This document shows positions 3,002 to 25,289 of a DNA stretch of 64,000 nt, in pieces. The notes beneath the pieces are model-generated. The model was not told where the DNA came from. It searched no databases and was given only the letters and a program-made list of their open reading frames with translations. The position numbers and the translations under genes are program-made. Each line of letters starts with the position of its first letter. Within the stretch, counting starts at the first letter, position 1. The stretch is from sequence record OM386654.1; one strand, 5' to 3'. The DNA is from Escherichia phage vB_EcoM_ESCO9.

Positions 3002-3003
3002 AA

Positions 3004-5757: not shown

Positions 5758-5775
5758 ATTAAAGAGGAGATAAGA

Positions 5776-6753: not shown

Positions 6754-6760
6754 TTCATTA

Positions 6761-6985: not shown

Positions 6986-7576
6986 ATGAAAAACATTAAA
7001 TCTTTTATTGTTGCAGTTGTTTTAGGTAGTGCATTGCTGGTAGGTTGTGATGATTCTGAAAATGTACAAAATCAACGTTACCAACAAACACCAAATCAGA
7101 TGGTAGATGAACAATATGTAAATCAGCCTGCACCTCAAGTTGTTCAAGCAGCACCTGCACAACCTTCAACAGTTGTTGTGCAAGGAGGCGGCAGTGGTTC
7201 TTCTGGTGTAGGTGAGTTTGCTACAGGTATGCTTCTTGGTCATATGTTGAGTGGTAATAGTGGCGGTGGTGGTTATAGAGATGGTGGTAGCAGCACAACA
7301 ATTATTAATAACAACGCTGCTCCTACAACTAACAGTAAAGCATATACAACACAAAAGCATAGTTTTTATGATAAACAAGGAAATACATATACAACCACTA
7401 AACAAAACACAATTAAGCAGCAAAGTGTACAAACGTATTCACGCCCATCAACAACAAAAGTGAATAGTGATTACTCTGCTCGTAAGTCTTACTCAAGCCC
7501 TATTAGCTCTTATAGTAAGTCTTCGAAAAGTTATTCTTCGTCGAAACGTAGTTTTAGTAGCTCACGTCGTCGTTAA
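6986..7576 (+). CDS. Putative lipoprotein, Gly/Ser/Thr-rich
   Basis: Signal peptide with lipobox LLVGC; low-complexity S/T/G-rich mature region; RBS GAGAGG. Confidence 0.5.
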   Translation: MKNIKSFIVAVVLGSALLVGCDDSENVQNQRYQQTPNQMVDEQYVNQPAPQVVQAAPAQPSTVVVQGGGSGSSGVGEFATGMLLGHMLSGNSGGGGYRDGGSSTTIINNNAAPTTNSKAYTTQKHSFYDKQGNTYTTTKQNTIKQQSVQTYSRPSTTKVNSDYSARKSYSSPISSYSKSSKSYSSSKRSFSSSRRR

Positions 7577-7611
7577 TAATTTAATACAGATTAAATAAGA
7601 AGGAGAAACAG

Positions 7612-8463
7612 ATGAAACTAGAAGTTGGTAAAGTATATCGCCTGGAAGGTTGGATCTTTAATCAAGAAATCCTTGAGAAGAATAAAGATGGTTTTGAGTT
7701 TGTTGGTACTACCAAGGAAAGTATGCACGATGACGAATACTGTAAATTCGTTGGTAAAAATACAGGTCAAGAACAATTTTGCTTTAAGAGCGCAATCGGG
7801 GACTATGCTTCTGTAATGCCAACACCAGAAAAGACTTCGAAGCAATATACTGTCTTTGGTGTAAAACTTGAAGAACTTGTAGAACACCCACGTTTTGAAG
7901 AGTTCAAGGTTGCTGCAATGCGCAAGCATTCTGAAATTAAAATACATAATTTGTTTGATTTAGAAGATCGGTTTGATATCTTTATGTATGATCGCAGGGA
8001 AAAGCATTTTGATGCAACGACTTCAAAATTTGCTGCAACAGAGGATATTAAAATCCTTGATGTTGATACCTTTCTTGAGAGTGTATCGTTTGTATTCATT
8101 CCTAAATACAAAAAACGTAGTGATCATAAACGTGTGAAAGGAACTCCTCGTAAGAAACGTACTGTAAACAAAGCAACTTTGCACTTCACTTCTGGTGATA
8201 AATATACTCTCAAAGGGTTTGAAAGTGTTTTATATGATGCTGGAACAGGTAATATCAAGTTTATCATTAAGGCAACCTACAAAGGTACGGTATTGCACGA
8301 AGAGGCTGTTACACTACCTGTATTCGATATCTCTCGTGTTGAGGTACGGGGTGTTAAAGAGTCCTTCGATCTGGATTTCTTAACTACTAATGCTACTGGT
8401 TATGTTAATCTGGAAGCAGATGGAGCATTTATTACTACAAATTATTTAGATATGTTTGTTTAA
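7612..8463 (+). CDS. Hypothetical protein (283 aa)
   Basis: Long ORF with RBS AAGGAGAAA; no motif recognised. Confidence 0.45.
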   Translation: MKLEVGKVYRLEGWIFNQEILEKNKDGFEFVGTTKESMHDDEYCKFVGKNTGQEQFCFKSAIGDYASVMPTPEKTSKQYTVFGVKLEELVEHPRFEEFKVAAMRKHSEIKIHNLFDLEDRFDIFMYDRREKHFDATTSKFAATEDIKILDVDTFLESVSFVFIPKYKKRSDHKRVKGTPRKKRTVNKATLHFTSGDKYTLKGFESVLYDAGTGNIKFIIKATYKGTVLHEEAVTLPVFDISRVEVRGVKESFDLDFLTTNATGYVNLEADGAFITTNYLDMFV

Positions 8464-8531
8464 TACTTAATTTGTGTTATGATGGTGGTACAGAGGTATC
8501 ACCATCTACTAAAGAATATGGAGGAAATTGA

Positions 8532-9635
8532 ATGTCCAGTCCTTTTATCAGTGCCGTAAAAAGCAAACCGTCTGAAATGAGTGTATTCACGGCAACAACA
8601 GAAAAAAGTAAGTCTTTGTTTGCTCCAAGTGCTATGGATGCAAGCCCTGTATATGCCCCTGCTGTTGCACGACCTGTACAAATGCTGCCTCCAATGTCTC
8701 GTGAAGAGATTGAACAGGTTGGTGCTGATGCAGGACTTACTCTTCGTAACCTTAATGCTGAAGTGCTTAAACACCAGCGTTCATCTCAGGGAGATGAAAT
8801 GAGTGAACGTTTAACTGCACTTATTAAGCAAGCAAAGCAACTTGATCCTAACTCTATTAAACAATCTAAAGGCTTAGGTAAACTAGTTAAGAAAGTATTA
8901 GGTATGAAAGAAGATTTGTTTGGTGAATTTGACACCATCAATAATCGTATTGAAGGTTTGGTAAAGACACTACAAACAGACTTGAAAAAAGAAGAAGATT
9001 CTTTACGATATCTGCAACGTTTAGAAGAGGCTATTGCAAAATATGCTCTTAGCTTAAACAGGGATATAGAGCTTCTAACAGCTACTTATGAAAAAGAAGA
9101 AGTTCGCCTTAATACACTACCTGAAAATGAAGTAGAAGAGCGTCAACGTACTCGTGACACTATGGATCTGCTTGAAATTCGTATTGCAGATCTGAAAGCC
9201 TTACGTTTACTGTGCGTTCAGATGGGGCCACGTGTACAAAGTATGCAGAAAGTATCTGCAAGTTTGATGCGATCAGCCCGTAATATTGTGAATAATGTTA
9301 TTCCTGCTTACTCTGCAAACTTTTCTATGTATATTGAAAGTCTACGCCAGAAGAAAGCAGCCGATACGCAGAACAATGTACTGAATGAATTTAATGCTGC
9401 TATTGCAATGGGTAGTGATCTGGCTGCACAAAACCAGATTGAAGCTACACAACTTGCTAATCGTCAAGTATTGGATATTGAAACATTGCGTCGTGATCAA
9501 GAAAACTTAGTTAAAATGTTGGAAGAAACTAACCGAATCAACACTGAAGCCCGTGCTGCTCGTATTGATTACATTCAAGAAGTGCAATCTCTTGAAGATG
9601 GTATGATTCAAACTGTTAAACGTGGTCTACTTTAA
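8532..9635 (+). CDS. Coiled-coil protein, candidate TelA/KlaA-like toxic-anion-resistance family member
   Basis: 367-aa predominantly helical/coiled-coil protein; assignment rests mainly on size, composition and position between terC-like and terD-like genes. Confidence 0.35.
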   Translation: MSSPFISAVKSKPSEMSVFTATTEKSKSLFAPSAMDASPVYAPAVARPVQMLPPMSREEIEQVGADAGLTLRNLNAEVLKHQRSSQGDEMSERLTALIKQAKQLDPNSIKQSKGLGKLVKKVLGMKEDLFGEFDTINNRIEGLVKTLQTDLKKEEDSLRYLQRLEEAIAKYALSLNRDIELLTATYEKEEVRLNTLPENEVEERQRTRDTMDLLEIRIADLKALRLLCVQMGPRVQSMQKVSASLMRSARNIVNNVIPAYSANFSMYIESLRQKKAADTQNNVLNEFNAAIAMGSDLAAQNQIEATQLANRQVLDIETLRRDQENLVKMLEETNRINTEARAARIDYIQEVQSLEDGMIQTVKRGLL

Positions 9636-9648
9636 GGAGAAATATATT

Positions 9649-9855
9649 ATGAATATTAAAATTTACAAACTGTCTGGTTCTATGATTGCTGTTCAGTATG
9701 ACAATGAAGATCGTTATGTTCTCCTCCAGGATGCTTGGTTAGATGATCCTAATGTATTCACTGTCCTGCGAGAACTACGTTCTGTCTATACCTATTCTTC
9801 TAAAGATGGTTTTGACAATTCAACGATGGAATTGGTAAAAGAGGAGAATGTGTAA
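9649..9855 (+). CDS. Hypothetical protein (68 aa)
   Basis: ATG with RBS AAGGAGAAA. Confidence 0.4.
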   Translation: MNIKIYKLSGSMIAVQYDNEDRYVLLQDAWLDDPNVFTVLRELRSVYTYSSKDGFDNSTMELVKEENV

Positions 9856-10055
9856 TGAGTAAAGATATTCACTTAACTCGTGAAGAATTGCAAACCATTA
9901 TGGAAGATGCTTTCATTGATGGTTGGAAACAAGGTCAAGAATCAGATTGGTATGATGCCGAAGATTTTTTGTATTATCATATGACTGCACCTGTAGACGA
10001 GCAAACACACTCTGAAACAACTTTGGCTTTAATTGATCTTAAGGCTGGTGTATAA
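9855..10055 (+). CDS. Hypothetical protein (66 aa)
   Basis: ATG with RBS GAGGAG, start overlaps previous stop. Confidence 0.4.
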   Translation: MSKDIHLTREELQTIMEDAFIDGWKQGQESDWYDAEDFLYYHMTAPVDEQTHSETTLALIDLKAGV

Positions 10056-10618
10056 TGGGGTGTTTTAGTTTCTTGTGCAAAGAGTCTGGTAATGCTGCTC
10101 TTTCTACCTCTTTCGATGGCTCTCCTTGCTACCTATTTCTTTTGAAAGGTGGTAAGGTTGTCGAAGAGATGTATGGGAATTATGATAGCTATGGTAGTGT
10201 TTTCTCTAACGAAGAAGATAAACATGGCAATCGTAAAAGATTTAAGTGGTCTATGCCTTGGGAAGAAGTTTGTAATTTGATGTTCTCTTCCGATCTTGGA
10301 GATGGGATTGCTCTAGTATTAGAAGAGCACTTTACAGGCGAGATCCCAACAGAAAGATCTGAAGAAGACCCTAACCAGGGTTGGGGTGATGGGGAAGAAG
10401 ATCCAGATTGCTTCTTCAGCACTGAAAATAATAAATTTAAACGTGTTGACAATCCTTACCACAAAGTGCATAATACTTGCATTGAGACAGAAGAAGACTC
10501 AAAGCTAGAAATTGAAGATGATTTAGTTGTAACTATCTCTTTAAACGAGTTGCAAAAAATCACTAGAGAGGCTTTCTATTTAGGTTGGAAAGTAGGTAAA
10601 GGAGGAGATAGTGCTTAA
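10055..10618 (+). CDS. Hypothetical acidic protein (187 aa)
   Basis: ORF in coupled array; Asp/Glu-rich. Confidence 0.4.
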   Translation: MGCFSFLCKESGNAALSTSFDGSPCYLFLLKGGKVVEEMYGNYDSYGSVFSNEEDKHGNRKRFKWSMPWEEVCNLMFSSDLGDGIALVLEEHFTGEIPTERSEEDPNQGWGDGEEDPDCFFSTENNKFKRVDNPYHKVHNTCIETEEDSKLEIEDDLVVTISLNELQKITREAFYLGWKVGKGGDSA

Positions 10619-10880
10619 ATTTAATATCAAAGACGACAAATCAGATGAACCTAAATGTTTTGGAGAACTTGACGTAGGTGATACATTTGTATATTATGTT
10701 GCCTATCAAGATTCTGGTTTAGATACATTCAGAAATTTAGTGTTTATTAAGGTTAATACAAACCAAGCAATGTGTCTGAACGGTTCGCAAAGAGGTCAAC
10801 TTAGCTGTATTTCGTATGATACAGAAATGGTAGAAGTGGATTTAGAAGTTACTAACATTACACTCAGAAAGGAGAAATAA
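10611..10880 (+). CDS. Hypothetical protein (89 aa)
   Basis: GTG start with RBS AGGAGGAG. Confidence 0.4.
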   Translation: MLKFNIKDDKSDEPKCFGELDVGDTFVYYVAYQDSGLDTFRNLVFIKVNTNQAMCLNGSQRGQLSCISYDTEMVEVDLEVTNITLRKEK

Positions 10881-10881
10881 T

Positions 10882-11676
10882 ATGTCCAATAAAATCAGTC
10901 TTAAAAAACGTCAAGAAACTCTTACCGTATCTCTGCGTAAGAAAAAGATTAACGATGTTGTTCTTCGTGTCGGTAGTGCCTTAGATATTTCGGGTAGTAT
11001 GTGTGAGCTGTATCGTGATGGCACTGTTAGTGATTTTGTAGGTAAACTGCTGCCGTTTGGTATGAAGTTTGATGATAATGCACAGATTGACATGTGGGCT
11101 TTCAATAGTTCTTCTTTTGAACTGCCTCCTGCAACGGCTGATGTATATGATGATTATGTCGGCTCTTGTATGTCTAATGTTTGCATCAATGGTGGTACAG
11201 CTTATGCCCCAGTAATGCAAGAGATCTATGATACATACTTCGGTAGTGTACCTATGAAAAATATTACACGCGAAGTCGTTGAGTATGAAGAAGTTCCGGC
11301 TAAGGGTTTCCTTGCTAAACTAACTGGTAAAAAAGAACGTGTAGAAGTTACACGTACTGTTGTAGAACAGGTTGTAGATACTGATGCACAAGTTGATCGT
11401 ACTCCTGCAATGATTTTCTTCCAAACTGACGGGGAGAACATGGATACTTCAGCAGTACGTAGTTTGCTGAACAAACACCGCAACACTCCTGTTTACTGGT
11501 TTATGGTTGGTGTAGGCAATGCAAACTTTAAATTCCTGAAAGACTTGGCAAAAGAATACGATAATGTTGATTTTATCGGTATTGCAGATTTGTCCTTGTC
11601 TGACGAAGAACTTTACGATAAACTGCTATCCGAAGAGTTTGGTGAGTGGGTTAAAAAATTTGGAGCAAAAGCGTAA
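10882..11676 (+). CDS. vWA-domain protein (TerY-like) with TerD-like N-terminal segment
   Basis: MIDAS motifs LDISGSM, GGTAYAP and FFQTDGENMD; N-terminus MSNKISLKKRQETLTVSL resembles TerD N-terminus. Confidence 0.55.
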   Translation: MSNKISLKKRQETLTVSLRKKKINDVVLRVGSALDISGSMCELYRDGTVSDFVGKLLPFGMKFDDNAQIDMWAFNSSSFELPPATADVYDDYVGSCMSNVCINGGTAYAPVMQEIYDTYFGSVPMKNITREVVEYEEVPAKGFLAKLTGKKERVEVTRTVVEQVVDTDAQVDRTPAMIFFQTDGENMDTSAVRSLLNKHRNTPVYWFMVGVGNANFKFLKDLAKEYDNVDFIGIADLSLSDEELYDKLLSEEFGEWVKKFGAKA

Positions 11677-11683
11677 AAAACGC

Positions 11684-11711
11684 TTGACTTTGTAGAAAAG
11701 ATTAGTAAAAT
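11684..11711 (+). promoter_or_regulatory. Sigma70-like promoter candidate (TTGACT-16-TAAAAT) upstream of terD
   Basis: Consensus-like hexamers, 16-nt spacer, about 40 nt upstream of terD start. Confidence 0.4.
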
Positions 11712-11748
11712 AGACAACGTAAATTAACAACAAAGGAGATAATAAATT

Positions 11749-12345
11749 ATGACTCAGAAAATTTCCCTGAAAAAAGGTTCTAGCGAAAAAGTTTCTCTGA
11801 AAAAGATTGCACCAGCACTGAAACGCATTCGTCTGGAATTCTCTTGGAAATCTAACGAAAAACTGGATCTGGATGTTAGTGCTCTGATTTGCCGACACAA
11901 TGCATCTGGTCTGCCGGAACTGTTGTCTCCTCGCCACCTGGTGTGCTACGCGCAGAAATTTGATCCTGAACGTTCTACTTTTGCAGGTGAAGATGTTCGT
12001 GATGGTGTAGGACAGATGGAGCAGATTGATGTTACACTGGATAATATCTCTGCTGAAGCACAGGAAATTGCATTCGTAATTACTATTGATGACGAAACGG
12101 GTAAGAAACGCCTTGGTCACGCTACCGAAGGTTTCCTTAAAATCTTCGATGATGAACGTAATGTTGAACTGCTGGATTTTGACTTCTTGGCTCCAGAACT
12201 TGCAGGTAATACCATTTGCCACGTTGCCTCCCTGGTGCGGGAAGATAGCGAATGGAAACTGAAAGCATATGGTGTAGGTAAAGCTGGACTTGACATTTAT
12301 GATGTAGTTAAAGCGTTTGGCGCTGGCGACGATTGGTTCGAGTAA
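11749..12345 (+). CDS. terD: TerD-family protein
   Basis: ISLKKG...KVSLKK, LDLDVSALIC, FVITIDD, EWKLKAYGVG align in order with the TerD family pattern as recalled from E. coli TerD. Confidence 0.85.
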   Translation: MTQKISLKKGSSEKVSLKKIAPALKRIRLEFSWKSNEKLDLDVSALICRHNASGLPELLSPRHLVCYAQKFDPERSTFAGEDVRDGVGQMEQIDVTLDNISAEAQEIAFVITIDDETGKKRLGHATEGFLKIFDDERNVELLDFDFLAPELAGNTICHVASLVREDSEWKLKAYGVGKAGLDIYDVVKAFGAGDDWFE

Positions 12346-12397: not shown

Positions 12398-13000
12398 ATG
12401 GGTATTACTTTAGAAGGTCAAAAACTTATTCGTAGCGGTAATTTTCTTGTGGATATTGACAACAATGAAGATTATGCTTTAGAAGTTAGTGATGTACTGT
12501 TTAATGCTTTGCAGTCTGGTTTCAATTTTGAAGTTTATGAAGTAATCCGTGGAACTAAACTCAGAGATACCCTTGGATCAACTAGTGATGTTTATTCGGC
12601 AATCTGGCAATATTTCGGGTTAATGGATGGTAAGACATACCTTACTGATAGTTATTCTGAAGATGTTGTTTATCTTGATATGGAAGAGTTTCGTCGTCTG
12701 TTCAAAAATGAAGAAAATGAAGAAGAGGGTGAACTTTTTGAAGGAATTACTCTCGAAGGTAATGTTGAAATTGTGTATAAAGCAGGAAAAACATTCCACT
12801 TGCGCGAAAACGGTAAAGCAAAAGTTGATTTTGTAAACAAGACAGTAACAACTGAACATAATTATCTTAAAGATGGTCAACCAGCTTTTGAACGTGTAAC
12901 AATTAAATTTAAAGTATTGTCTGCACTAATTACGGATCAAGAACGTATTGATTTTGTAGAAGATGGTGTAGTAACTCATACGAAGGTCTACAACATCTAA
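12398..13000 (+). CDS. Hypothetical protein (200 aa)
   Basis: ORF with RBS AGAGGAG. Confidence 0.45.
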   Translation: MGITLEGQKLIRSGNFLVDIDNNEDYALEVSDVLFNALQSGFNFEVYEVIRGTKLRDTLGSTSDVYSAIWQYFGLMDGKTYLTDSYSEDVVYLDMEEFRRLFKNEENEEEGELFEGITLEGNVEIVYKAGKTFHLRENGKAKVDFVNKTVTTEHNYLKDGQPAFERVTIKFKVLSALITDQERIDFVEDGVVTHTKVYNI

Positions 13001-13010
13001 CAGGGTGTAA

Positions 13011-13029
13011 GAGGGGGATAATCCCCCTC
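13011..13029 (+). other. Stem-loop GAGGGGGA-TAA-TCCCCCTC (no U-tract)
   Basis: Perfect 8-bp inverted repeat after the 12398-13000 gene. Confidence 0.35.
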
Positions 13030-13032
13030 AAC

Positions 13033-13061
13033 TTGCAAAACAGCCTCTTCTGTGTTACAAT
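13033..13061 (+). promoter_or_regulatory. Sigma70-like promoter candidate (TTGCAA-17-TACAAT)
   Basis: Hexamers with 17-nt spacer upstream of cell wall hydrolase gene. Confidence 0.35.
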
Positions 13062-13092
13062 AAAAGTTCGTTTAACAAAATAGGAGGCAAGT

Positions 13093-13602
13093 TTGTCAAT
13101 AAAAACCTTTGTCGCAATTGCGTTACTATCCTTAACTGCTTTTACATTTACACCTGTCGTGGCGCAAGCCGAAGCTGCAAACGTAAAAACTGCTAAAGTA
13201 GTTCACAAGTGTACAAAGCGTGATAGTAAAGAAAATCTATTAGCTTGTGCAATCTATGCAGAAAGTCGTAATCAAGGAAAGCGCGGTATGTCTGCTGTTG
13301 GTAATGTAGTATTAAATAGGGCTAGAGATTCATATTTCCCTGATACTATAAAAGAAGTTTTGTTTCAAAAAGGACAATTCTCTTACACAAAGACATTCAA
13401 CGTTATGGAACGTGATAAGTGGAAGGAAGCTAAGGCTATAGCAGAACGTCTGCTTTATCTCGATACGCATTTTCCAGAATTACGAATTGCATTAGATATT
13501 ACAAAAGGAGCATTATACTTTAAAAAATCTACAATAAGAGCACACTGGGAAAAAGATATGGTTCTAGTGTACCGCTACAAAGAACATCAATTCTATCGCT
13601 AA
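13093..13602 (+). CDS. Secreted cell-wall hydrolase, SleB/Hydrolase_2-like
   Basis: N-terminal signal peptide (…FTPVVAQAEAANV); motif CAIYAESRNQG...GNVVLNRA...FSYTK typical of SleB-type cell wall hydrolases; TTG start with RBS AGGAGG. Confidence 0.6.
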   Translation: MSIKTFVAIALLSLTAFTFTPVVAQAEAANVKTAKVVHKCTKRDSKENLLACAIYAESRNQGKRGMSAVGNVVLNRARDSYFPDTIKEVLFQKGQFSYTKTFNVMERDKWKEAKAIAERLLYLDTHFPELRIALDITKGALYFKKSTIRAHWEKDMVLVYRYKEHQFYR

Positions 13603-13612
13603 GGAGATATAG

Positions 13613-13891
13613 ATGAAAGATGGCGTTATCGTTGCAAGTTATCTTGTTATTGGTCTTACAGAAGAGGATGTACATTACATTAGGAAACATTTAGAACAGT
13701 TTGCAATGATGTTCATCGAAGACGAAGACAATATGGATGTTTATTCAATTGAAATGATCAATGATAACGTCTATCCTTGTATAGCTTTACGAGTCGATGA
13801 AGATGTTTGGGAACGTTTTTCACGTAGTCACGATAATGTTGAATGTTCTATGGTTATGTCACAAAACAACATACTGGGAGTGTTACACTGA
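13613..13891 (+). CDS. Hypothetical protein (92 aa)
   Basis: ORF with RBS AAGGAG. Confidence 0.4.
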   Translation: MKDGVIVASYLVIGLTEEDVHYIRKHLEQFAMMFIEDEDNMDVYSIEMINDNVYPCIALRVDEDVWERFSRSHDNVECSMVMSQNNILGVLH

Positions 13892-14121
13892 TGGCTGATG
13901 TTATTGAGGTTAACTTTAAAACAAAAAAGAAAGTTGATAAGTATACAATCTTAAAAAATATTTGCGTTGTGTGCTTCAATTCTGTAATATATGACTCACG
14001 TAAGGGCGAAAATGAAAATGAACCTTACATCCAGATTTCTAAAGGTAAAGGGCAGTGTATCTGCAAAAACTGTGCTGTAGCAATTAAGGAGGTTGTAGAT
14101 GAAAACCATTGGGATCAATGA
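13891..14121 (+). CDS. Hypothetical small Cys-rich protein (possible zinc ribbon)
   Basis: ATG 13891 overlaps previous stop (ATGA); CVVC...CICKNC pattern. Confidence 0.35.
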   Translation: MADVIEVNFKTKKKVDKYTILKNICVVCFNSVIYDSRKGENENEPYIQISKGKGQCICKNCAVAIKEVVDENHWDQ

Positions 14122-14293
14122 TACTGGTGAAGTTGTAAAATCTTGGGATGATCTTAGTGGTATCCCTACAGATAAGCTGATTAAACTGCGTGATGTTTGT
14201 CGTGATCATCTTAATGAAACATATAAAGAGTATATGGAAGCACGAGATCACAGTTTAGCTATCCAAATGGAACTCGCAAAACGTAATCAATAG
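14099..14293 (+). CDS. Hypothetical protein (64 aa)
   Basis: ORF with RBS AAGGAGG. Confidence 0.35.
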   Translation: MKTIGINDTGEVVKSWDDLSGIPTDKLIKLRDVCRDHLNETYKEYMEARDHSLAIQMELAKRNQ

Positions 14294-14350
14294 GTAAAAC
14301 CATTTGGACTTTTTAGTCTAAAAATGCTAAAGTAATAATACGGAGGGAGT

Positions 14351-14914
14351 ATGATATTTCACATAACTCCCTATCTTTCTGGAGATATTGGAAAAGGTAT
14401 CAATGACACAATAAGTGTCTTACCAGAAGATAGTTGGATTTGCCTAAGAGACATTGATACAATGTTTCTTCTTCCAGAACAACCTGCTTGGCTGGAATCA
14501 ATTGTCCGTTCAAATCCTGATTTTGATGTTCTTGGTGCATCTTGTAACAGATTGGGATCAACATATCAATTATTTAATAATGAAAGAAGTGAAGATCCGA
14601 ATATATTACACCACATTGAGATTGCAAAAAGAGCACATCTAGAATGGGGAAACTCAATAGAGGAAGTACCTACAGATGCTATCTTAGCAGGATTCTTTCT
14701 TCTCTTTCGTAAGAGTCTGTGGAATGAAATTCCTTTTGAGGAAAGATCAATACAGTTTGATATAATTTTCTCTAAAGCATTGCACGCTAACAATAAAAGG
14801 CTAGGTTTACTACGTGGGTTATATTTATTTCACACATACCGTTTAGGTAATGATGATCCTAGAAAAGCTGTTTCACACCTTTTACATTGTCAAGACATGA
14901 ATAAAATTATTTAA
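14351..14914 (+). CDS. Hypothetical protein, possibly glycosyltransferase-related
   Basis: 187-aa ORF with RBS GGAGGGAG directly upstream of three GT-like genes; no firm motif. Confidence 0.35.
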   Translation: MIFHITPYLSGDIGKGINDTISVLPEDSWICLRDIDTMFLLPEQPAWLESIVRSNPDFDVLGASCNRLGSTYQLFNNERSEDPNILHHIEIAKRAHLEWGNSIEEVPTDAILAGFFLLFRKSLWNEIPFEERSIQFDIIFSKALHANNKRLGLLRGLYLFHTYRLGNDDPRKAVSHLLHCQDMNKII

Positions 14915-14923
14915 GGAGTTATT

Positions 14924-15610
14924 TTGGAAAATACAAAAATTGGTGTTGGTGTTATTACTGTAGGTAAGCGTCCTCTTAAAGATTATCTTGTGACTGATCC
15001 TAGTGCTACTTTTGTTGTACAGTATGATCGGGAACGAAAAGGTGTTGCATATGCTCGTAATGAACTGATGAAAAAGTTTTATGATGAAGGATATGATTAC
15101 TGGTTTATTTTTGATGATGATTGCTATCCTGTTGTTCAAGGTTGGGAAACATATTTTGTAAAACAGGCGAAGGAAAATGGTTGGGATTTCTTTGGTATGC
15201 CTGAATACTTTAAAGATAAAGTAAAAGGTATTGAAGGGGAAGTGGTTATTTGGGAGCTAGGAATGTGCCAGTTTGGTATGTATTCCCGTGCAGTTATTGA
15301 GAAAGCTGGCTATTTCCGCTCATACACCCACGGCTATGGGTATGAAGATGCAGAGTGGATTCATCGCGTCCCACTGGCAGGTTTGAACCGAGGTATTCAA
15401 GGCGTACCATGTCCTATTCGAATTATGGCGTTTATCCATCCTGATGATGTATTTGGAGACAATCCTTTACCTTTTGCGAATCTGTCAAAAGAAGAGAAAG
15501 AACAGGGGATTGGTGTAAACTGGGAACAATATAAACAATCCCTGGAGGATCTTCGCAATGGTAAAACTTTTATCTCTTATGAGGAGGCTCAAAAATATGG
15601 TAAATCCTAA
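14924..15610 (+). CDS. Putative glycosyltransferase (GT-A-like, DxD-type)
   Basis: Acidic motif FIFDDDCYP resembling DxD nucleotide-sugar-binding motif; TTG start with RBS AAGGAG. Confidence 0.4.
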   Translation: MENTKIGVGVITVGKRPLKDYLVTDPSATFVVQYDRERKGVAYARNELMKKFYDEGYDYWFIFDDDCYPVVQGWETYFVKQAKENGWDFFGMPEYFKDKVKGIEGEVVIWELGMCQFGMYSRAVIEKAGYFRSYTHGYGYEDAEWIHRVPLAGLNRGIQGVPCPIRIMAFIHPDDVFGDNPLPFANLSKEEKEQGIGVNWEQYKQSLEDLRNGKTFISYEEAQKYGKS

Positions 15611-16571
15611 TACTCCTGTACTTAAGTGTGATAATAAGTTAGGCAGTGGTTGTGATTACCATCGTATTGTAATGCCATTTGCTGGAAATACGTTTAAACC
15701 TAAGAAAGACGTTTTAGTTTTTAATAGAGTGTATTCTCGTGGATCAGACGAAGTTAAACGCCTGAAGGCACAAGGTGTTAAGATTATTGTTGATTTAGAT
15801 GATTTTTATTCGCTTAATCCTGAACATTATATGGCTGGCGTATTTACTAATCACTCAAAGACTATTGTAGAGATGATTAAGTTAGCAGATGTGGTTACTG
15901 TAACAACAGAATACCTAGCTTACAAAATTCGTCATTTAAATCGTAATGTTGTCGTTATTAGAAACGCACTACCTTACGACGAAGGTCAATTTACTTTGAC
16001 AAAAGACCGTTATTCTGACACGCCTATTATTTGGGCGGGAGGAGCAAGCCATGAACCTGATTTATCTCTTGTAGCTAATACATTTGATGATACGCTATTG
16101 ACAATTGCAGGGTATGAAGTGTATCCTTCTGCACCTGTTGGAAATAATAGTCAGTATCTAACTACTGCGGAGTGGGTTAAAGTAAAACGTAAAATTCCAA
16201 ATGCACAGTATAAACCAGCTATTAAAAATTTAGGTGAGTATATGTCTGTGTATGACGGTCACAGTATTGCAATTGCTCCTCTGGTAGATAATGACTTCAA
16301 CAACTGTAAAAGCAATTTGAAGATTTTGGAAGCAGGTGCAAAGGGTCTTCCTATTATCTGTTCTCCTGTGCTGCCGTACTTCAATCCGGTAGATGCAAAG
16401 GCTGTTATCTATGCAGACTCTAAAGCATCTTGGCATTATAAAGTTGTCAAGCTAATGAGGAACCCTAGATACACAGAAGATCGTGGTATGATGCTTGCAG
16501 AACACGTTCGTCTTAATTATAATCTTGCAGATGCTAATGAACTGCGTCGTCAAGTTATTGAAAGTCTTTAA
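15597..16571 (+). CDS. Putative GT-B fold glycosyltransferase (paralog 1)
   Basis: C-terminal motif KSNLKILEAGAKGLPIICSP resembles the GT-B E-x7-E/LEAxAxGxP sugar-donor motif; RBS GAGGAGG. Confidence 0.5.
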   Translation: MVNPNTPVLKCDNKLGSGCDYHRIVMPFAGNTFKPKKDVLVFNRVYSRGSDEVKRLKAQGVKIIVDLDDFYSLNPEHYMAGVFTNHSKTIVEMIKLADVVTVTTEYLAYKIRHLNRNVVVIRNALPYDEGQFTLTKDRYSDTPIIWAGGASHEPDLSLVANTFDDTLLTIAGYEVYPSAPVGNNSQYLTTAEWVKVKRKIPNAQYKPAIKNLGEYMSVYDGHSIAIAPLVDNDFNNCKSNLKILEAGAKGLPIICSPVLPYFNPVDAKAVIYADSKASWHYKVVKLMRNPRYTEDRGMMLAEHVRLNYNLADANELRRQVIESL

Positions 16572-16582
16572 TAAGGAGCTAT

Positions 16583-17527
16583 ATGCCTAATATTATTCTT
16601 GACACACGCGGAAATGAAAAGTATAGTGTATGTGATTTTCATAGAATCATTTTGCCATATAAACGCAAACTGACCATTAATCCTAAGCATAATATTTTTG
16701 TGTTCAATGGAGTACCAACACGTGGAAAGCCAGGTTTCCTGGCTCTTAAACAACTTGGGTTTAAATTGGTAATGGATCTGGATGATTCTTTAATTATTCC
16801 TGAAGGGCATATGCTTGAAGGATTATTTGAAAATCAAATCCGAGATGACCTAAAATGGTTCCTTGAAAGAAGTGATCTTGTAACTACAACAACTCCGGCA
16901 TTAAAGGTTGAATTAAGCCAATACAATGATAATGTACATATTGTGCCTAACGGACTACCTTTTGATGAAGGACAGTTTGTTCTTACTAAAGATCGTTATT
17001 CTAAAAGTCCACTGGTTTGGGCGGGAAGTGAAACACATAAACATGATTTAGCAATTCTTCCTGATTTTGGTAAAGATTTAACTTTATGTGGATTTCGTAG
17101 AGATCACGAAGAGTTAAGTAGTGCTCAATGGTTGCAAATTAAAGAAAATATTCAACCAGATTGTGTTTATGAAGGTATTCGTCCTTATGAGTGTTATATG
17201 GAAGCATACGATGGTCATCAAATCTCCATAGCTCCATTAGTAAATAATCATTTTAATAATGCCAAAAGTAATTTAAAAATTCTTGAAGCTGGTGCTAAAG
17301 GTTTGCCACTCGTTTGTTCGCCACGAGAGAACTATTATACTGAAGAATTTAAAGATCTAATCTTCTTTGCTGATTCAGTTAAAGAGTGGAAAGATATTGT
17401 AGAATACTTAATCGAATCCCCTGATGTTTGTATTGAGAAAGGATTGGCTCTTGCTAAGTATGTAAGAGATAACTACAATATTGATGATTTAAATGAAACC
17501 CGCAGACTGCTTATCGAGGATTTATAA
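16583..17527 (+). CDS. Putative GT-B fold glycosyltransferase (paralog 2)
   Basis: Clear paralog of 15597-16571 (shared FVFNGV/DLDD, LTKDRYS, DGHxISIAPLVNN.FNN.KSNLKILEAGAKGLP blocks); RBS AAGGAG. Confidence 0.5.
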   Translation: MPNIILDTRGNEKYSVCDFHRIILPYKRKLTINPKHNIFVFNGVPTRGKPGFLALKQLGFKLVMDLDDSLIIPEGHMLEGLFENQIRDDLKWFLERSDLVTTTTPALKVELSQYNDNVHIVPNGLPFDEGQFVLTKDRYSKSPLVWAGSETHKHDLAILPDFGKDLTLCGFRRDHEELSSAQWLQIKENIQPDCVYEGIRPYECYMEAYDGHQISIAPLVNNHFNNAKSNLKILEAGAKGLPLVCSPRENYYTEEFKDLIFFADSVKEWKDIVEYLIESPDVCIEKGLALAKYVRDNYNIDDLNETRRLLIEDL

Positions 17528-17796
17528 TGCACACTTTTGATTTTGAGTATAAACAAGATAATAAAGAACCTATTATTGTTGAAGTAGATTACTATTATGA
17601 AGAACCTAACCCTTTCTCACGAGAAAGTGATTGGGATTATTATGGTGGTCTTATTGTTGATGGTATTAGGTTTTATTCTGGTACAAAAGACCTTTTTGAT
17701 ATAGATATTTCCCCATCGGAAATTGTTTACCAATTTAAGAAACATATGGAAGATTTGGAAATGCAATATATTATGGAGACAAACGAATCATTTTAG
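17527..17796 (+). CDS. Hypothetical protein (89 aa)
   Basis: ATG overlapping previous stop. Confidence 0.4.
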   Translation: MHTFDFEYKQDNKEPIIVEVDYYYEEPNPFSRESDWDYYGGLIVDGIRFYSGTKDLFDIDISPSEIVYQFKKHMEDLEMQYIMETNESF

Positions 17797-17808
17797 TAGG
17801 AGAATCCT

Positions 17809-19581
17809 GTGTCTTATGTTGTAAATAAATATGGGTATAACATTGATCTAAGTCAAGAAGGACATACTGGGTGTCCTCGTTGTATGAAAGGAGGGCGTGA
17901 TCGATCACAAAACAATTTGATGGTATATGGCTTAGATGCCGATGAAGACCATCGAGGCGCACATTGTTTTTCTTGTGGCTTTACTATCCCTGATCAAAAA
18001 TGGTTAAATGCACACGGCGAAGAAATTGAAGAGGAGGATATCTTGGGTAGTGAGTTTAATCCAGAAGTACATGATAAACTAAAAGCCAGCACTGGAACTA
18101 ATCCAAAAGGTTATCGCGGTATTCGTGAAGATATCTCTAAGCCTTTCGGTGTACGTTATATGTACGATGAAGCTACTGGCGAAGTAATTTCAACACTATA
18201 CCCTACAACTAAAGATTACAATATTGCTGGGTATAAACAACGTATCGATCCAAAAGATTTCTCACATCCTATCGGTGAAACAGGAAAGGATTGTGATCTT
18301 TTTGGGGAGTTTAAATATCGTAACCACAGCGGTACTATTCTAATCGTTGGTGGTGAACACGATATGCTGGCTGCAACACAGATGCTAAAAGATTATAACA
18401 AGGGTGGTAAATATCCTGTTCCTGCTGTAGTATCTGGTACTTGTGGCGAAACATCTCTGCATAAGCAGCTTCAACATCGTTATAAATTCTTAGATCAATT
18501 TAAAAAGATTGTTCTATGTATGGATAATGATGAAGCTGGACGTGCAGCAGTTGAGAAATGTGTTAAAATCTTACCACGTAATAAAGTTTACGTGATGGAA
18601 CTAACGGATGTTAAAGATCCTAACCAGGCACTAGTAGAAGGAAAAATTGATCATTTTATTGATCGCTTTTTCAAAGCTAAACTGTACACACCTGCTGGTG
18701 TTTACGCTTCTAACGTACTATATGAAGCAGCCTTGGAATGCCTGGAAGCTAAAATGATCACCCTTCCTCCATTCATGCGTGTTGCTTCGAATATGTTAGG
18801 TGGAGGCTTGGTAGAAGAAGAAATTACTGTTATACTTGCAAAAACAAGTATCGGTAAGACACTGTTGGTTAACGAGATTACGAAACACATTATTCTTGCA
18901 CACCCAGAACATACTCTTGGTATTTTATCTTTGGAGGCAACGTATAAGAAGTATTCTCGTAACTTACTGTCTTCATTCTTGCATATCCCTCTTCACCGTA
19001 AAACGAAAGAAGAGAAGGAAAAGATTTTAAAAGATAATGAAGAAAAGATTCGTGATTTTTACGAACGAGAAGATGGAACACCACGTTTCTATGTTTGTGA
19101 TGATCGTGGAGCTAACGTAGATGTGATTAAAGAGAAGGTTCTGGAAATGATTATTTATTTCGGAGTAACCATTCTTGTTATCGACCCTTATTCTGACTTG
19201 CTTTCTGGTATGGACGTGTCACAACAAGAGGAACTTGCGACGTGGCTGAAACGCATTATGAAAGAGTATGCAATAACCATTGTTGTAATTTCACACGTTA
19301 AAAAGTCTTCTAACAATAGTAATGAACATATTGTAGAAGATGATGCAATGGGTAGTAGCTTCCTTGCTAAAGGTGCTGGTATCACAATTGCGCTGGAGCG
19401 TGATAAACAAGCTGAAGATCCTATGGAACGTAACCGCACATATTGCTACATTCTAAAGAACCGTGAGTTCTCAGAGACTGGTGCAGCAGGTAGTTTCTTC
19501 TATGAGATTAAAACAGCTACACTTCACGATTACGATCAATACACAAGTAACCCAGAGAATATTCCTGATGGTTCTTATTAA
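17809..19581 (+). CDS. DNA primase-helicase (Zn-ribbon/TOPRIM primase fused to DnaB-like helicase, T7 gp4-type)
   Basis: N-terminal CPRC...CFSCGF zinc ribbon; central acidic TOPRIM-like region; C-terminal P-loop LAKTSIGKT and Walker B LVIDPYSD; GTG start with RBS AGGAG. Confidence 0.7.
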   Translation: MSYVVNKYGYNIDLSQEGHTGCPRCMKGGRDRSQNNLMVYGLDADEDHRGAHCFSCGFTIPDQKWLNAHGEEIEEEDILGSEFNPEVHDKLKASTGTNPKGYRGIREDISKPFGVRYMYDEATGEVISTLYPTTKDYNIAGYKQRIDPKDFSHPIGETGKDCDLFGEFKYRNHSGTILIVGGEHDMLAATQMLKDYNKGGKYPVPAVVSGTCGETSLHKQLQHRYKFLDQFKKIVLCMDNDEAGRAAVEKCVKILPRNKVYVMELTDVKDPNQALVEGKIDHFIDRFFKAKLYTPAGVYASNVLYEAALECLEAKMITLPPFMRVASNMLGGGLVEEEITVILAKTSIGKTLLVNEITKHIILAHPEHTLGILSLEATYKKYSRNLLSSFLHIPLHRKTKEEKEKILKDNEEKIRDFYEREDGTPRFYVCDDRGANVDVIKEKVLEMIIYFGVTILVIDPYSDLLSGMDVSQQEELATWLKRIMKEYAITIVVISHVKKSSNNSNEHIVEDDAMGSSFLAKGAGITIALERDKQAEDPMERNRTYCYILKNREFSETGAAGSFFYEIKTATLHDYDQYTSNPENIPDGSY

Positions 19582-19591
19582 GGAGAGAAAT

Positions 19592-19987
19592 ATGAAAGAC
19601 AACGAAAATATCCTTTATGGGGTATCCCCTTCTGCGTTAGGGTATGATTATACGAAAACTGTTGCTAAGTTTAAATTTCAAGATGGATCGGAGTTAGAAC
19701 CATACGGTTATGCTTATGGTGAACATTTGTGGTTTGAGGATGGTTGCCTATACCTTCTCATTCAAACTACCAGTGGTTTTGTGGGAGAGCTTGTAGATCG
19801 TATGCTGAAAAATGTTAGTGATAAAGTTGTTCTTGATATCGCTAGTAAGGATGAAAACATTAATAACATTGTTTCCACTTTTAATGGTTTGACAGGCACT
19901 GTTAAAATTGAACGTGTAGGCTTGAGAAATACCAATGGTGTCCCTAATTGCCTTATTAAAGTACAACTAAGTGCTGACAATAAATAA
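19592..19987 (+). CDS. Hypothetical protein (131 aa)
   Basis: ATG with RBS AGGAGAG; in-frame upstream extension in ORF track overlaps primase and is unlikely. Confidence 0.45.
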   Translation: MKDNENILYGVSPSALGYDYTKTVAKFKFQDGSELEPYGYAYGEHLWFEDGCLYLLIQTTSGFVGELVDRMLKNVSDKVVLDIASKDENINNIVSTFNGLTGTVKIERVGLRNTNGVPNCLIKVQLSADNK

Positions 19988-19991
19988 CAAG

Positions 19992-20010
19992 AAGGGGCGA
20001 AAGCCCCTTT
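19992..20010 (+). terminator. Stem-loop AAGGGGC-GAAA-GCCCCTT
   Basis: GNRA-loop hairpin between genes; weak T-run. Confidence 0.4.
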
Positions 20011-20077
20011 ACAAAACAATTAATTTGTGGTACAGTATTAACAAATTAAGACTTTAGAAATATTTTAAGGAGGGAGA

Positions 20078-22657
20078 ATGGGAGCTTTTACTTTCGACAT
20101 TGAAAGTAACAACTTGCTTAATGACGAAAGTGTAGATTACTTGGCAAGTCCATATCGTTTAAAAGATAGTTTTGCAATGCACTGTATTGTGTGCGAAAGT
20201 CATGATACTGGAGAGATTATTGCTTTCCATGATGGTGATAAATATCTTTTCGATGGTCGTCCGTATATTGAGACTGACGGAAAGTATGAATACCGACTGG
20301 AGGAATATGAGCATTTAGAATATACCCATTTCCCTCTTAAAGATTTTCCTGATTTTGTAAATGGAACAGGTAAATTTAAAGGTAATTCAAACTATAAAAT
20401 TACCAAAGTAGTTGGACATAACATCATTAACTTTGACTTACTGGCAATTAAATTATTTTTTAAACTCAACTACAGTATTAAGTACAATACTTGGGGTAAT
20501 AGTAACATTGAAATTTGTGATACTATGATCTTAAGTAAGACACTAAACCCTGATCGCTTCGGTGGTCATAGTCTGGCAGAGTTATCTAAGAAAGCTGGAG
20601 GGGATGTTAAAATTGATTTTAGAAAAAACATCCCTGAAACTGAAAGATTTAAAACATTTGCAGCAGATATGCTGTATTACTGTATTTACGATAACAAAGC
20701 TAACACCGCAGTGTTCCGTTATTTGATGGAAGAGTGGGGTGATTATAATAAGTGGTCTGAACCATTTAACTTAGAACAACGTGTAGCTGATATTATTACA
20801 CGTCAAGAGCACCGTGGCTTTGCTTTCAATATGAAGCAAGCAGAAGATAATATTCGTGATCTGGATGCTCGAATGGAAGCATGTCGTTTAGAGGCAGAAC
20901 CTGTGCTACCTCCTAAACCTGCTACTAAAGGTTATTTGAAATCATTCATTCCACCTAAACTACAGTTTAAAAAGAATGGTGAACCTTCAAGTAACATGAT
21001 AAAGTTTGCAGAGAAACATTCTGGTGAACTTGTACAAAAAGAAGATGGTTGGTGGTTATTTGCATTAGGTAAAGAGTTTAAACTGCCTATTCCAGCAGAA
21101 GAACCTATTTGTGATCCTACAGTACCTGCTACTTTAGACGACACTACACATATTAAAAATTGGTTAGTTGGTTTAGGTTGGAGTCCATCTGAATATAAAG
21201 ATAAAGATATCACTCTTAAATCTGGCACTAAGATTAAGAAAGATGAAGCACAAATGGAGAAAGCTATTCGTGACTATGTTGATCAAACATTAGCATCTAA
21301 CTTCTGCCAGGATAGATGTGATCATCTGGAGTGCACACCAGAAACTTTGGAATGGAAACTAAGAGATCGTATTGCTAAAGCTAAAGGTCGTGGTGTTAAG
21401 GTGCTTACTAACCCTTCCTTTACAAAAGGGCAAGAGAAGGATATTTGTCCTAACTTGGAAGCACTAGGTGAAAAGTTTCCTTATGCTACGCAGATTGTGC
21501 AGTATCTTACGTATAAACATCGTAGAAACTCTATTCTAGGCGGTGGTGCTGATTGGGAAGAGGATGAAGAGGATTACGATAAAGGTTATCTGGCGGCAGT
21601 AAGGGCTGATGGTCGTATACCGACTCCTGCTGCAACGTGTGATGCAGCTACGTCTCGTATGAAACATAGGTTAGTAGCAAATATCCCACGTGTAACATCT
21701 CTGTACGGATATGAAATGCGTAACTTATTTGGTGTAGAAGTTCCAAAATACTTCCAAATTGGTTATGACTTTGATTCTCTTGAGGCAAAAATAGAATCAC
21801 ACTACTGTTGGCGGTACGAGCAGGAACCACATGAATATTGTAATGCTCTATTATTGGAAAAACCTAATGATGTTCATACAATGATGGCTCGACGTATTTC
21901 TGACACTATTGGTCGTAAGTTTGAACGAAGCCCTGCTAAATCTGTTAAGTATGGTATTACTTATGGTGCTCAAGCTGCAAAAGTAGCAAAAACTATAGGT
22001 AGTGATATGTATACAGGACAGCTTGTATACGATGCTTTCTGGGAAGCTGCAAAACCTCTTGCGCTTCTTAAAGAACGTCTGCATGATTTTTGGGTTAAAA
22101 CAGGTAAGAAATACATTCTTGGTATTGATGGTAGGAAAGTACCTACACGATCTGCACACGCAATACTTAACTCTCTGTTCCAGAGTGGTGGTGTTATTTG
22201 TGCAAAAAGAGCAATGGTTATCTACGACGATCTTATCGAAGAAGAAGGATTAGCTGTTGACTTTTTTGTTGATGACTGGAAAAATAAGTCATTCGTTCAA
22301 CAAATGATTGCATATCACGATGAAGCACAGCTTGAAGTAACTCGTGATCTGGTGCATTTTAAATGGTTCTCTAAAGAATCTTTAGGTTGGACTCAAGTTG
22401 ATGATCCAGAAGAACAAAAGAAAATTGATAAAGAATGTTTGGATAAGGTTAATGCCTGGAAAGAAGAGGAAGAGAAACGTACTGGCAAGATTTGGGCTAA
22501 CGTACATGAATCTCCGAAAGGTGGTTGGTTTACAGCCTACAGTCGTGCTGGAGAATTAGCATCTATCGCTGTTAATAAAGCTGGTGAGTATTACAATCTT
22601 AATGTACCTCTCACTGCTGGTTACGATGTTGGTAGTTCATGGTCAACTTGTCACTGA
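20078..22657 (+). CDS. DNA polymerase, family A (Pol I-like) with N-terminal 3'-5' exonuclease region
   Basis: Motif B-like RRISDTIGRKFERSPAKSVKYGITYGAQ and motif C YHDEAQLEV; 859 aa; RBS AAGGAGGGAG. Confidence 0.8.
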   Translation: MGAFTFDIESNNLLNDESVDYLASPYRLKDSFAMHCIVCESHDTGEIIAFHDGDKYLFDGRPYIETDGKYEYRLEEYEHLEYTHFPLKDFPDFVNGTGKFKGNSNYKITKVVGHNIINFDLLAIKLFFKLNYSIKYNTWGNSNIEICDTMILSKTLNPDRFGGHSLAELSKKAGGDVKIDFRKNIPETERFKTFAADMLYYCIYDNKANTAVFRYLMEEWGDYNKWSEPFNLEQRVADIITRQEHRGFAFNMKQAEDNIRDLDARMEACRLEAEPVLPPKPATKGYLKSFIPPKLQFKKNGEPSSNMIKFAEKHSGELVQKEDGWWLFALGKEFKLPIPAEEPICDPTVPATLDDTTHIKNWLVGLGWSPSEYKDKDITLKSGTKIKKDEAQMEKAIRDYVDQTLASNFCQDRCDHLECTPETLEWKLRDRIAKAKGRGVKVLTNPSFTKGQEKDICPNLEALGEKFPYATQIVQYLTYKHRRNSILGGGADWEEDEEDYDKGYLAAVRADGRIPTPAATCDAATSRMKHRLVANIPRVTSLYGYEMRNLFGVEVPKYFQIGYDFDSLEAKIESHYCWRYEQEPHEYCNALLLEKPNDVHTMMARRISDTIGRKFERSPAKSVKYGITYGAQAAKVAKTIGSDMYTGQLVYDAFWEAAKPLALLKERLHDFWVKTGKKYILGIDGRKVPTRSAHAILNSLFQSGGVICAKRAMVIYDDLIEEEGLAVDFFVDDWKNKSFVQQMIAYHDEAQLEVTRDLVHFKWFSKESLGWTQVDDPEEQKKIDKECLDKVNAWKEEEEKRTGKIWANVHESPKGGWFTAYSRAGELASIAVNKAGEYYNLNVPLTAGYDVGSSWSTCH

Positions 22658-24341: not shown

Positions 24342-25289
24342 ATGCCAGTAATTAATTCTGAAATCGATCGTCGTACTAAAAAAGAAGCATTCTGGGCTGA
24401 AGGTATCGTTGAATATGTCAAACTAGATAAGTTTGATGAAATGAAAGTCTCTTATATTAAGGTTGCAGGTCAGCCAGATAAGAAAATTGAATCAACTCAC
24501 AAAGCATCCCTGCTTATTAAAGAGAAAGGTGCTGGTGCTGATGATAAAGGTGTTTGGGTTAGCCTAGGTGAAGTTAAACTGCACCCAGAACATGAAAACC
24601 TGCAAGTTAAAGATGGTGATAAGTGGATTACTATCGAAAAAGGTGTAGAAGTAACTATGGATGTTAAACCTTCCGAATGGAATGGCAAAACATACTACAA
24701 CTCCTCTAAAGGTAAAATCACTGTTCTTTCAACAGAAGGTGTTCAGCAAGCACAATCTTCTTCAAAAGGTGGAAATAAGCCATCTAATAACGAAGGTAGC
24801 AAGCCTAACTACAAAAAACGTGATACCGTAGGGATTGAAACAGGACACGCTGTAAACGGCGCTCTGGAGCTTCTACGTGCTGGTGTGAAAGGTGATGCTT
24901 TCGACTTGGCTGGTGTGGTACAATCTGCAACTGTTAATCTGAAAGCAGAAATTGCTAAAGATCGTGGCGTTGATGTGACTGACTATGATCTTGGTGCTTC
25001 AGTTGGACACGCAATTCTTAACGCTTGTCGTGATCATACAGGTAAAACTGTAACGGCAGAAGAGATTATTGAAGCTGCTCGTGAAGTTCTTGCTTTGTCT
25101 GATAAAGTAGCTGCTGCTATCCGTGGAATGTCTACCCCAGTACAAGAAGTTAAGAAAGAAACTAAAAAAGTAGAGAAAAAAGAGCCAGCACCGAAAGAAC
25201 CAGAACCTGTTGTTCAAGATTTCGATGATGATATCCCATTTGCTCCTATTGGTTTGCAGTATGGTCGAAATTTCCTGCACTGTTTCTAA
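24342..25289 (+). CDS. Hypothetical protein (315 aa), possible DNA-binding protein
   Basis: ORF with RBS GAGGAG in replication module; C-terminal acidic tail (DFDDDIPF) reminiscent of SSB-type tails but no firm motif. Confidence 0.4.
   Translation: MPVINSEIDRRTKKEAFWAEGIVEYVKLDKFDEMKVSYIKVAGQPDKKIESTHKASLLIKEKGAGADDKGVWVSLGEVKLHPEHENLQVKDGDKWITIEKGVEVTMDVKPSEWNGKTYYNSSKGKITVLSTEGVQQAQSSSKGGNKPSNNEGSKPNYKKRDTVGIETGHAVNGALELLRAGVKGDAFDLAGVVQSATVNLKAEIAKDRGVDVTDYDLGASVGHAILNACRDHTGKTVTAEEIIEAAREVLALSDKVAAAIRGMSTPVQEVKKETKKVEKKEPAPKEPEPVVQDFDDDIPFAPIGLQYGRNFLHCF

Follow-up and report, generated by a model that had tools for sequence, protein, structure and literature searches.

A four-gene glycosyltransferase cluster in Escherichia phage vB_EcoM_ESCO9, its probable rhamnose supply and its candidate acceptors

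Genes of the cluster

The window analyzed here is a 64,000-nucleotide (nt) stretch of the genome of Escherichia phage vB_EcoM_ESCO9 (OM386654.1), and its element of interest is a 3.2-kb cluster of four plus-strand genes at 14351–17527, the products of which are, with high confidence, glycosyltransferases (GTs). We refer to them in order as GT1 to GT4; the enzyme family that is also called GT4 appears below only as 'GT4-like' or 'GT4-family'. GT1 (14351–14914) encodes a small soluble GT-A-like protein of 187 amino acids (aa), and GT2 (14924–15610; 228 aa) a protein with a GT-A fold that contains the segment FIFDDDCYP. GT3 (15597–16571; 324 aa), the first 14 nt of which lie within the end of GT2, and GT4 (16583–17527; 314 aa) encode GT-B proteins of the GT4-like type. 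A preliminary description of this DNA had placed four open reading frames (ORFs) at these coordinates and read them as two GT-B paralogs preceded by a DxD-type gene (GT2) and a further ORF (GT1); in all of these respects it was right.

All four proteins match glycosyltransferase families in PHROG, and the RefSeq annotation already names each of them a glycosyltransferase; in the BASEL collection two of the ORFs are annotated as 'putative glycosyltransferases' and two as 'putative disaccharide synthases'. Curated models cover these GT families poorly. Public records disagree about the start of GT3, which is an ATG at 15558 in BASEL (337 aa) and lies at 15597 in RefSeq (324 aa); we favor 15597 because of its GAGGAGG ribosome-binding site and the alignment with the N-terminus of GT4. 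Each of the four genes has a GGAGG/AGGAG ribosome-binding site 5–9 nt upstream, the intergenic gaps range from −14 to +11 nt, and the GC content at third codon positions is like that of neighboring genes. No 19-residue stretch of membrane-helix strength is present in any of the four proteins (maximum Kyte-Doolittle value 1.21).

The cluster is 100% identical in Escherichia phage VEcB (NC_052663.1; Justusliebigvirus, phi92-like), and the window as a whole is 98.9% identical to VEcB, with one variable tailspike position differing; no record of the phage collection matched the window end to end. VEcB served as the proxy genome for all genes outside the window and, because the two are only 98.9% identical, statements about those genes refer to the proxy.

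The position between a lysis enzyme and replication genes, noted in the preliminary description, is borne out. Upstream are a SleB-type cell-wall hydrolase gene (13093–13602; Pfam Hydrolase_2, E 6.5e-20) and three small ORFs; downstream are the primase-helicase (17809–19581) and DNA polymerase (20078–22657) genes. A plus-strand ORF of 89 aa (17527–17796; phrog_4240, E 3.9e-34) overlaps GT4 by 1 nt and is translationally coupled to it, and a small ORF of about 83–87 aa also separates the GT-B gene from the primase-helicase gene in related phages and contigs. The claim that the cluster lies far from structural genes is true only in a relative sense, as opposite-strand tail-fibre genes start about 9 kb downstream. 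A scan of the plus strand from 12900 to 20200 found no terminator-like site, and hence none before the primase gene, so that the cluster is probably co-transcribed with the primase-helicase and DNA polymerase genes; taken as a whole, the promoter and terminator scan tells us little, with 33 promoter-like sites where 26.5 would be expected.

GT3 and GT4 are true paralogs, sharing 41% identity over their full length (BLASTP, E = 3e-83), and both carry LKILEAGAKGLP, which includes the LEAGAKGLP donor motif. GT3 matches phrog_7162 (E 3.4e-149) and gives weak Pfam matches to Glyco_trans_1_4 and Glyco_trans_1_2, the latter with only 15.8 bits; GT4 matches Glyco_trans_1_2 with 26.8 bits (cutoff 25). 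The AlphaFold (AF2) model of GT4 (pLDDT 93.7, pTM 0.91) has the two Rossmann-like domains of a GT-B fold, and its top 50 Foldseek matches in the PDB are nearly all GT-B (E-values down to 5.5e-10), led by the GT4-family enzymes TreT, GlgM, BshA, PglA, MshA, SdgB, TarM and GtfC. The donor motif of GT4 reads K228-S229-x2-K232-x2-E235-AGAKGLP, with K228, S229, K232 and E235 invariant in an alignment of 41 sequences. E235 corresponds to the second Glu of an EX7E-type motif, the first Glu position of which is, by inspection, apparently of Asn type. Both enzymes are predicted to be retaining.

The AF2 model of GT2 (pLDDT 89.5) is a single GT-A domain with a DxD metal site, and D64-D65-D66 is invariant across the family. 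Its Foldseek matches in PDB and BFVD are generic GT-A proteins (STIV A197, WrtF, TarP, COLGALT1/LH3 and giant-virus GTs), and a YGYED segment resembles the catalytic region of beta4GalT/GT2 enzymes. GT2 matches phrog_2456 (E 3.5e-79) and phrog_1579 (E 7e-11), and is predicted to be metal-dependent and inverting.

GT1 is probably a small GT-A-like glycosyltransferase, and is the least certain of the four. It matches phrog_14179, annotated 'glycosyltransferase' (E 5.5e-113), and the C-terminal half of phrog_26101 (E 9.6e-24), and it has no match in Pfam, NCBIfam or PDB sequences. In Cellulophaga phage phi18:2, gp39 has a TOD1_MUCI70 GT-like domain as its N-terminal half and a homolog of GT1 as its C-terminal half. 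D34-x-D36 (RDIDT) is invariant in the GT1 family, and GT1 homologs lie in phage sugar islands in every case. A comparison of the GT1 and GT2 families with hhalign was not significant (0.7%), though their DxD regions were aligned.

Probable rhamnose supply and the proposal of DNA as acceptor

Of the 56 phage records that match the cluster, 55 do so with at least 95% identity, and orthologs with 66–78% aa identity are found in Phapecoctavirus and in allied Klebsiella and Citrobacter phages. A full dTDP-L-rhamnose pathway is encoded outside the window: RmlA, RmlB, RmlC and RmlD of the proxy genome all score above the NCBIfam equivalog cutoffs. RmlD is present in 156 of 50,697 phage records, and its distribution closely follows that of the GT cluster. 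Among Escherichia records, RmlD is found in 106 and the GT genes in 106, 106 and 105, and the counts for RmlD and the cluster agree for records labelled Campylobacter (5 and 5), Justusliebigvirus (3 and 3) and Phapecoctavirus (3 and 3). The pathway and the cluster are co-inherited, and dTDP-L-rhamnose is a reasonably probable donor for at least one of the GTs. GT content varies among relatives, a Klebsiella relative having GT1 and one GT-B gene only; such variation is typical of glycan diversification.

The five Campylobacter-labelled records (MG065639, MG065645, MG065650, MG065656 and MG065689) are named 'Campylobacter phage' with C. jejuni as host, and are 98–99% identical to E. coli Justusliebigvirus/Phapecoctavirus genomes across the GT locus. 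Mislabelling of the host is the probable cause, unless these are genomes of contaminant coliphages.

Two sugar-modification systems invite comparison with a GT cluster of this kind: T-even DNA glucosylation (gp42 dCMP hydroxymethylase with alpha-GT, beta-GT or the T6 GT ggt) and the TET/JBP-associated GT systems (TAGT, PF20691), in which a C5-cytosine methyltransferase (MTase), a TET enzyme and a GT act. The preliminary description proposed that the phage may hypermodify its DNA with sugars as an anti-restriction device. Neither this idea nor the GT genes are new: Olsen 2020 (PMC7552041) pointed out that phi92-like phages and Phapecoctavirus have a complete dTDP-rhamnose pathway, and suggested that hydroxymethylated bases might be rhamnosylated. 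As with the T-even alpha- and beta-gt genes, GT-B and GT-A genes here lie among the replication genes of a large lytic coliphage.

The published behavior of the DNA speaks against the proposal. Maffei 2021 (PMC8594841) found the phi92-like phages Bas60–62 'exceptionally susceptible' to restriction-modification (RM) systems, their putative dTDP glycosylation machinery notwithstanding, and one of these, Bas61 EmilieFrey, carries the cluster at 98.4% identity. Within a collection of avian pathogenic E. coli phages, HincII left only the DNA of ESCO10, ESCO47 and ESCO58 uncut, and digested that of the Justusliebigviruses ESCO8, ESCO9 and ESCO32 (PMC10269720); the cluster is present in ESCO8 and ESCO32 with 98.5–98.6% identity. 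DNA of the group is thus restricted both in vivo and in vitro, where T-even DNA is refractory. RM sensitivity and HincII digestibility are taken from the literature; GT folds and motifs, paralogy, conservation, Rml co-occurrence, the comparison with DNA GTs and the scan for base-activating enzymes were computed here. No nucleoside analysis for the phi92-like group was found in the literature searched.

Enzymes that would prepare a base for glycosylation were sought in the proxy genome with Pfam, using E ≤1e-3 and ORFs of at least 130 aa outside the structural block and a set of annotated large genes; the ORFs were concatenated with GS or PA linkers, and 'Serglycin' matches are a GS-linker artefact. 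At Pfam-level sensitivity, no Tet_JBP, ThyA-family hydroxymethylase or DpdA domain was detected in these ORFs. The thymidylate synthase is of ThyX rather than ThyA type. The scan did find a C5-cytosine MTase together with N6/N4 MTases, and the former could in principle feed a TET-type pathway; its gene is, however, unlinked to the GT cluster, about 87 kb away.

Similarity to known DNA GTs is confined to the DxD region of GT2, residues 26–79 of which match Pfam TAGT with 22.1 bits, under the gathering threshold of 27.5; a similarly weak local match at the DxD is seen to phrog_842, the T6 beta-glucosyl-hydroxymethylcytosine (HMC) alpha-GT (E 4.5e-5). T6 ggt, the beta-glucosyl-HMC alpha-GT itself, is a TAGT member (PMC13390438) and shows no detectable relation to the GT2 family with hhalign (0.7%). 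For the GT3/GT4 family hhalign gave 0.9% against the T6 alpha-GT, a comparison with the alpha- and not the beta-GT, and neither T4 alpha- nor beta-GT is among the top 50 Foldseek PDB matches of GT4.

Bulk hypermodification of the DNA is therefore very unlikely, on account of the RM and HincII data, the scan for base-activating enzymes and the lack of detectable homology to DNA GTs. The acceptor is most probably something other than DNA, and for glycosylation of DNA, by rhamnose or other sugars added to modified bases so as to block restriction, the prospects are slim; the number of GTs, four, and their varying content among relatives also resemble oligosaccharide assembly more than the decoration of bases. 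A sparse or sequence-specific rhamnosylation, at sites marked by one of the orphan MTases or directly on a base and needing no hydroxymethyl handle, would occur too seldom to shield the DNA from the RM systems and HincII used so far, and we consider it barely plausible.

Possible virion, envelope and soluble acceptors

The favored interpretation, which we hold tentatively, is that the cluster forms a module for glycan assembly that is fed with rhamnose and has virion proteins as its targets. The four soluble GTs, probably in one transcription unit with replication genes, would work in the cytoplasm of the infected cell with phage-made dTDP-L-rhamnose and host UDP-sugars. Two small GT-A-type enzymes (GT2 and, probably, GT1) and two GT4-like GT-B enzymes (GT3 and GT4) may act one after another, assembling a short oligosaccharide that contains rhamnose on an acceptor other than DNA. 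Subunits of the capsid, tail or fibres are the likeliest candidates, and the result would be a glycosylated virion as in some mycobacteriophages. A virion structural protein is in our opinion a possible acceptor, if an uncertain one.

The closest known systems are those of virion O-glycosylation in mycobacteriophages (Che8, Corndog and Myrna), in which clusters of soluble GTs are likewise encoded by the phage. In Mycobacterium phage Boomer, the N-terminal GT-A domain of gp102 is a homolog of the GT2 family (hhalign 99.3%, E 1.4e-20, 194 columns), and tblastn with the family matched about 350 Mycobacterium phage records. The gene for gp102, itself a GT, lies where cluster F mycobacteriophages have the right end of their genome, in the slot occupied by the Che8 GT genes. 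In Che8, a cluster F phage, virion O-glycosylation by phage GTs has reportedly been demonstrated (Freeman, in Cell Host Microbe, 2023). A passage of PMC11256854 repeats this second-hand. The phage described here differs from the mycobacteriophages in that it infects a Gram-negative host, is a myovirus of 147 kb, supplies its own dTDP-rhamnose and has its GT genes in the replication region.

The GT3/GT4 family is related over its full length to gp6 of Streptomyces phage KimJongPhill (hhalign 99.8%), and homologs of all three GT families occur in or beside the head and packaging genes of small modular phages; actinophage relatives of GT3 and GT4 adjoin packaging genes. A GT-A and a GT-B gene directly precede terS, terL, portal and capsid genes in one small phage; in KimJongPhill the GT-B gene, together with genes for a UDP-glucose dehydrogenase and a methyltransferase, lies before terS; and elsewhere an acetyltransferase gene and a GT2 homolog do so. 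A GT-B gene is also found between terL and a putative portal gene, and a GT1-type gene between portal/MuF and protease/major capsid protein genes in Cellulophaga phage phi18:2; in a further small phage a GT1-type gene is located with GT2, a deacetylase gene and two Methyltransf_24 genes between terminase and portal/capsid genes. Other homologs are in sugar islands near replication genes, and the neighbor of a Burkholderia homolog is an intimin/invasin adhesin gene, a hint that the substrate may be a protein.

Several points count against a virion acceptor. The GTs implicated by experiment in Che8 are gp108–110, none of which is detectably related to GT2 (hhalign below 1% in each case), so that the mycobacteriophage link is to uncharacterized relatives. 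The three contexts before terS are ambiguous, because DNA methylases are common in that slot of small phages. The cluster lies in an array of replication and metabolism genes and has no terminator between it and the primase gene, which points to early- or middle-class expression; such timing would suit host takeover no less than decoration of virions. GT4-like enzymes often use lipid-linked or polymer acceptors (PglA, TarM and PimB', for example). No direct evidence of glycosylated virions, and no report of a glycosylated virion protein, exists for the phi92-like group; a 2026 cryo-electron microscopy study of phi92 (PMC13450770), in which head, connector, tail and baseplate were modelled, says nothing of glycans or of unassigned density, a silence that is weak evidence because flexible glycans are often invisible.

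A proteinaceous shell decorated with self-supplied rhamnose would have parallels outside the phages. Rhamnose glycosylation is involved in the fibril glycans of Mimivirus and in the BclA/spore-crust glycans of Bacillus, which are made with Rml/Sps enzymes and CgeB-type GTs, the latter of which we take to belong to Glyco_trans_1_2, the same Pfam family as GT4. Such systems combine a rhamnose nucleotide-sugar pathway with several GTs, as the phage appears to, and giant-virus GTs are among the structural neighbors of GT2; the likeness is one of analogy, not of demonstrated sequence-level orthology.

A lateral tail-fibre protein encoded within the window (28431–30392, minus strand) has short collagen-like stretches of GDK/GEK triplets, for example GPKGDKGDKGDKGNTGD. 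It was considered as a BclA-like target of rhamnosylation and dropped, because its repeats are of GDK and not GXT type and no lysyl hydroxylase was detected in the proxy-genome scan.

The main rival is remodelling of the host envelope, in which the soluble GTs would work on the cytoplasmic side of the inner membrane with phage-made dTDP-rhamnose, modifying lipopolysaccharide (LPS) core or undecaprenyl-linked intermediates of enterobacterial common antigen (ECA), NGR glycan, O-antigen or capsule. The phage would so mask its own receptors on infected cells and debris, excluding superinfection and protecting progeny. Co-transcription with early or middle genes would suit this role, as would the lipid-linked and polymer acceptors of PglA, PimB' and TarM, which share the GT4-like fold; one record names a paralog 'RfaG' by BLAST. 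Phages of this group recognize the surface glycans ECA and NGR (PMC8594841) and the first outer-core glucose of LPS (PMC11990801), and the cluster adjoins a block with envelope-related members (TerC, TelA, TerD, vWA-TerF, a lipoprotein and the secreted cell-wall hydrolase). No membrane-anchored partner (flippase, Wzy or Gtr-type protein) is seen in the window, however, and homologs of the three GT families lie within the head modules of small phages, some of which infect Gram-positive bacteria; the literature examined reports no seroconversion by the strictly lytic phages of the present group. On balance envelope remodelling is unlikely, though a serious competitor.

The block just mentioned is a Ter-type gene cluster on the plus strand at 1435–12345, upstream of the GT cluster, that recurs in related Klebsiella phages and in metagenomic contigs. 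It encodes an AAA ATPase (about 1435–2595), a HAD hydrolase (about 3004–3660), a PRTase_3/ComF-like protein (about 3653–4510), a Macro domain protein (about 4503–5219), TerC (about 5776–6741), TelA (about 8532–9635), a vWA-TerF-like protein (10882–11676) and TerD (11749–12345). Within it, an ORF of about 200 aa (about 6971–7576, plus strand) has a lipoprotein-type N-terminus (…ALLVGC) and a long low-complexity C-terminal tail rich in Ser, Thr, Tyr and Lys (…SYSSPISSYSKSSKSYSSSKRSFSSSRRR), and has no Pfam match. Anantharaman, Iyer and Aravind are said to have predicted in 2012 that Ter-associated clusters make a nucleoside-like metabolite, and the block in the window presumably resembles those modules.

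Its proximity raises the further alternative that the GTs modify a soluble target, either a non-structural host or phage protein or a small molecule such as a product of the Ter/PRTase/HAD/macro block, for host takeover or counter-defence. The early or middle operon context and the nearby PRTase_3, HAD and Macro domains agree with this, as do the GT4-fold enzymes that use small molecules (BshA, MshA and pterin glucosyltransferase). Many phages with GT homologs lack Ter genes, however, and the Ter and GT blocks are linked only by their adjacency in this lineage; we regard a soluble target as improbable.

Other features of the window and significance

At 37121–37494 the window lacks a variable tailspike gene of about 2.2 kb that VEcB has at this position, apparently the slot of the phi92 gp143 endosialidase; ESCO32 is likewise without a gene at the variable tailspike position (PMC10269720). 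A 315-aa 'hypothetical protein' encoded beside the Dam methylase gene (about 24342–25289, plus strand) has no Pfam match and ends in …DFDDDIPF, an acidic tail typical of single-stranded DNA-binding proteins, and is probably the phage member of that class. Outside the window, a Sir2-family protein is encoded near the C5-cytosine DNA MTase among early genes (NC_052663.1, 12187–15317), and the proxy genome has several orphan MTases and, elsewhere, NAMPT, PRPP synthase (NAD salvage) and a NADAR domain protein.

Phage-encoded glycan-assembly clusters are a known class, to which this locus is best assigned. If the glycan is indeed placed on virion proteins, this might be the first virion-glycosylation system, with rhamnose supplied by the phage itself, in a phage of a Gram-negative host, a claim that we put forward with reserve. 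Phages of the genera Justusliebigvirus and Phapecoctavirus infect a very broad range of hosts and are under consideration for therapy and biocontrol, and all keep the four-GT cluster and the full rhamnose pathway. A 'rhamnose DNA modification' is still repeated for them in the literature and is contradicted by the existing RM and restriction-digest data. Should the enzymes remodel the host envelope, they would represent a new receptor-masking strategy in lytic phages. A virion glycan would extend virion glycosylation from actinophages to coliphages, and would bear on the immunogenicity of therapeutic phages, since in mycobacteriophages this trait shapes antibody recognition.

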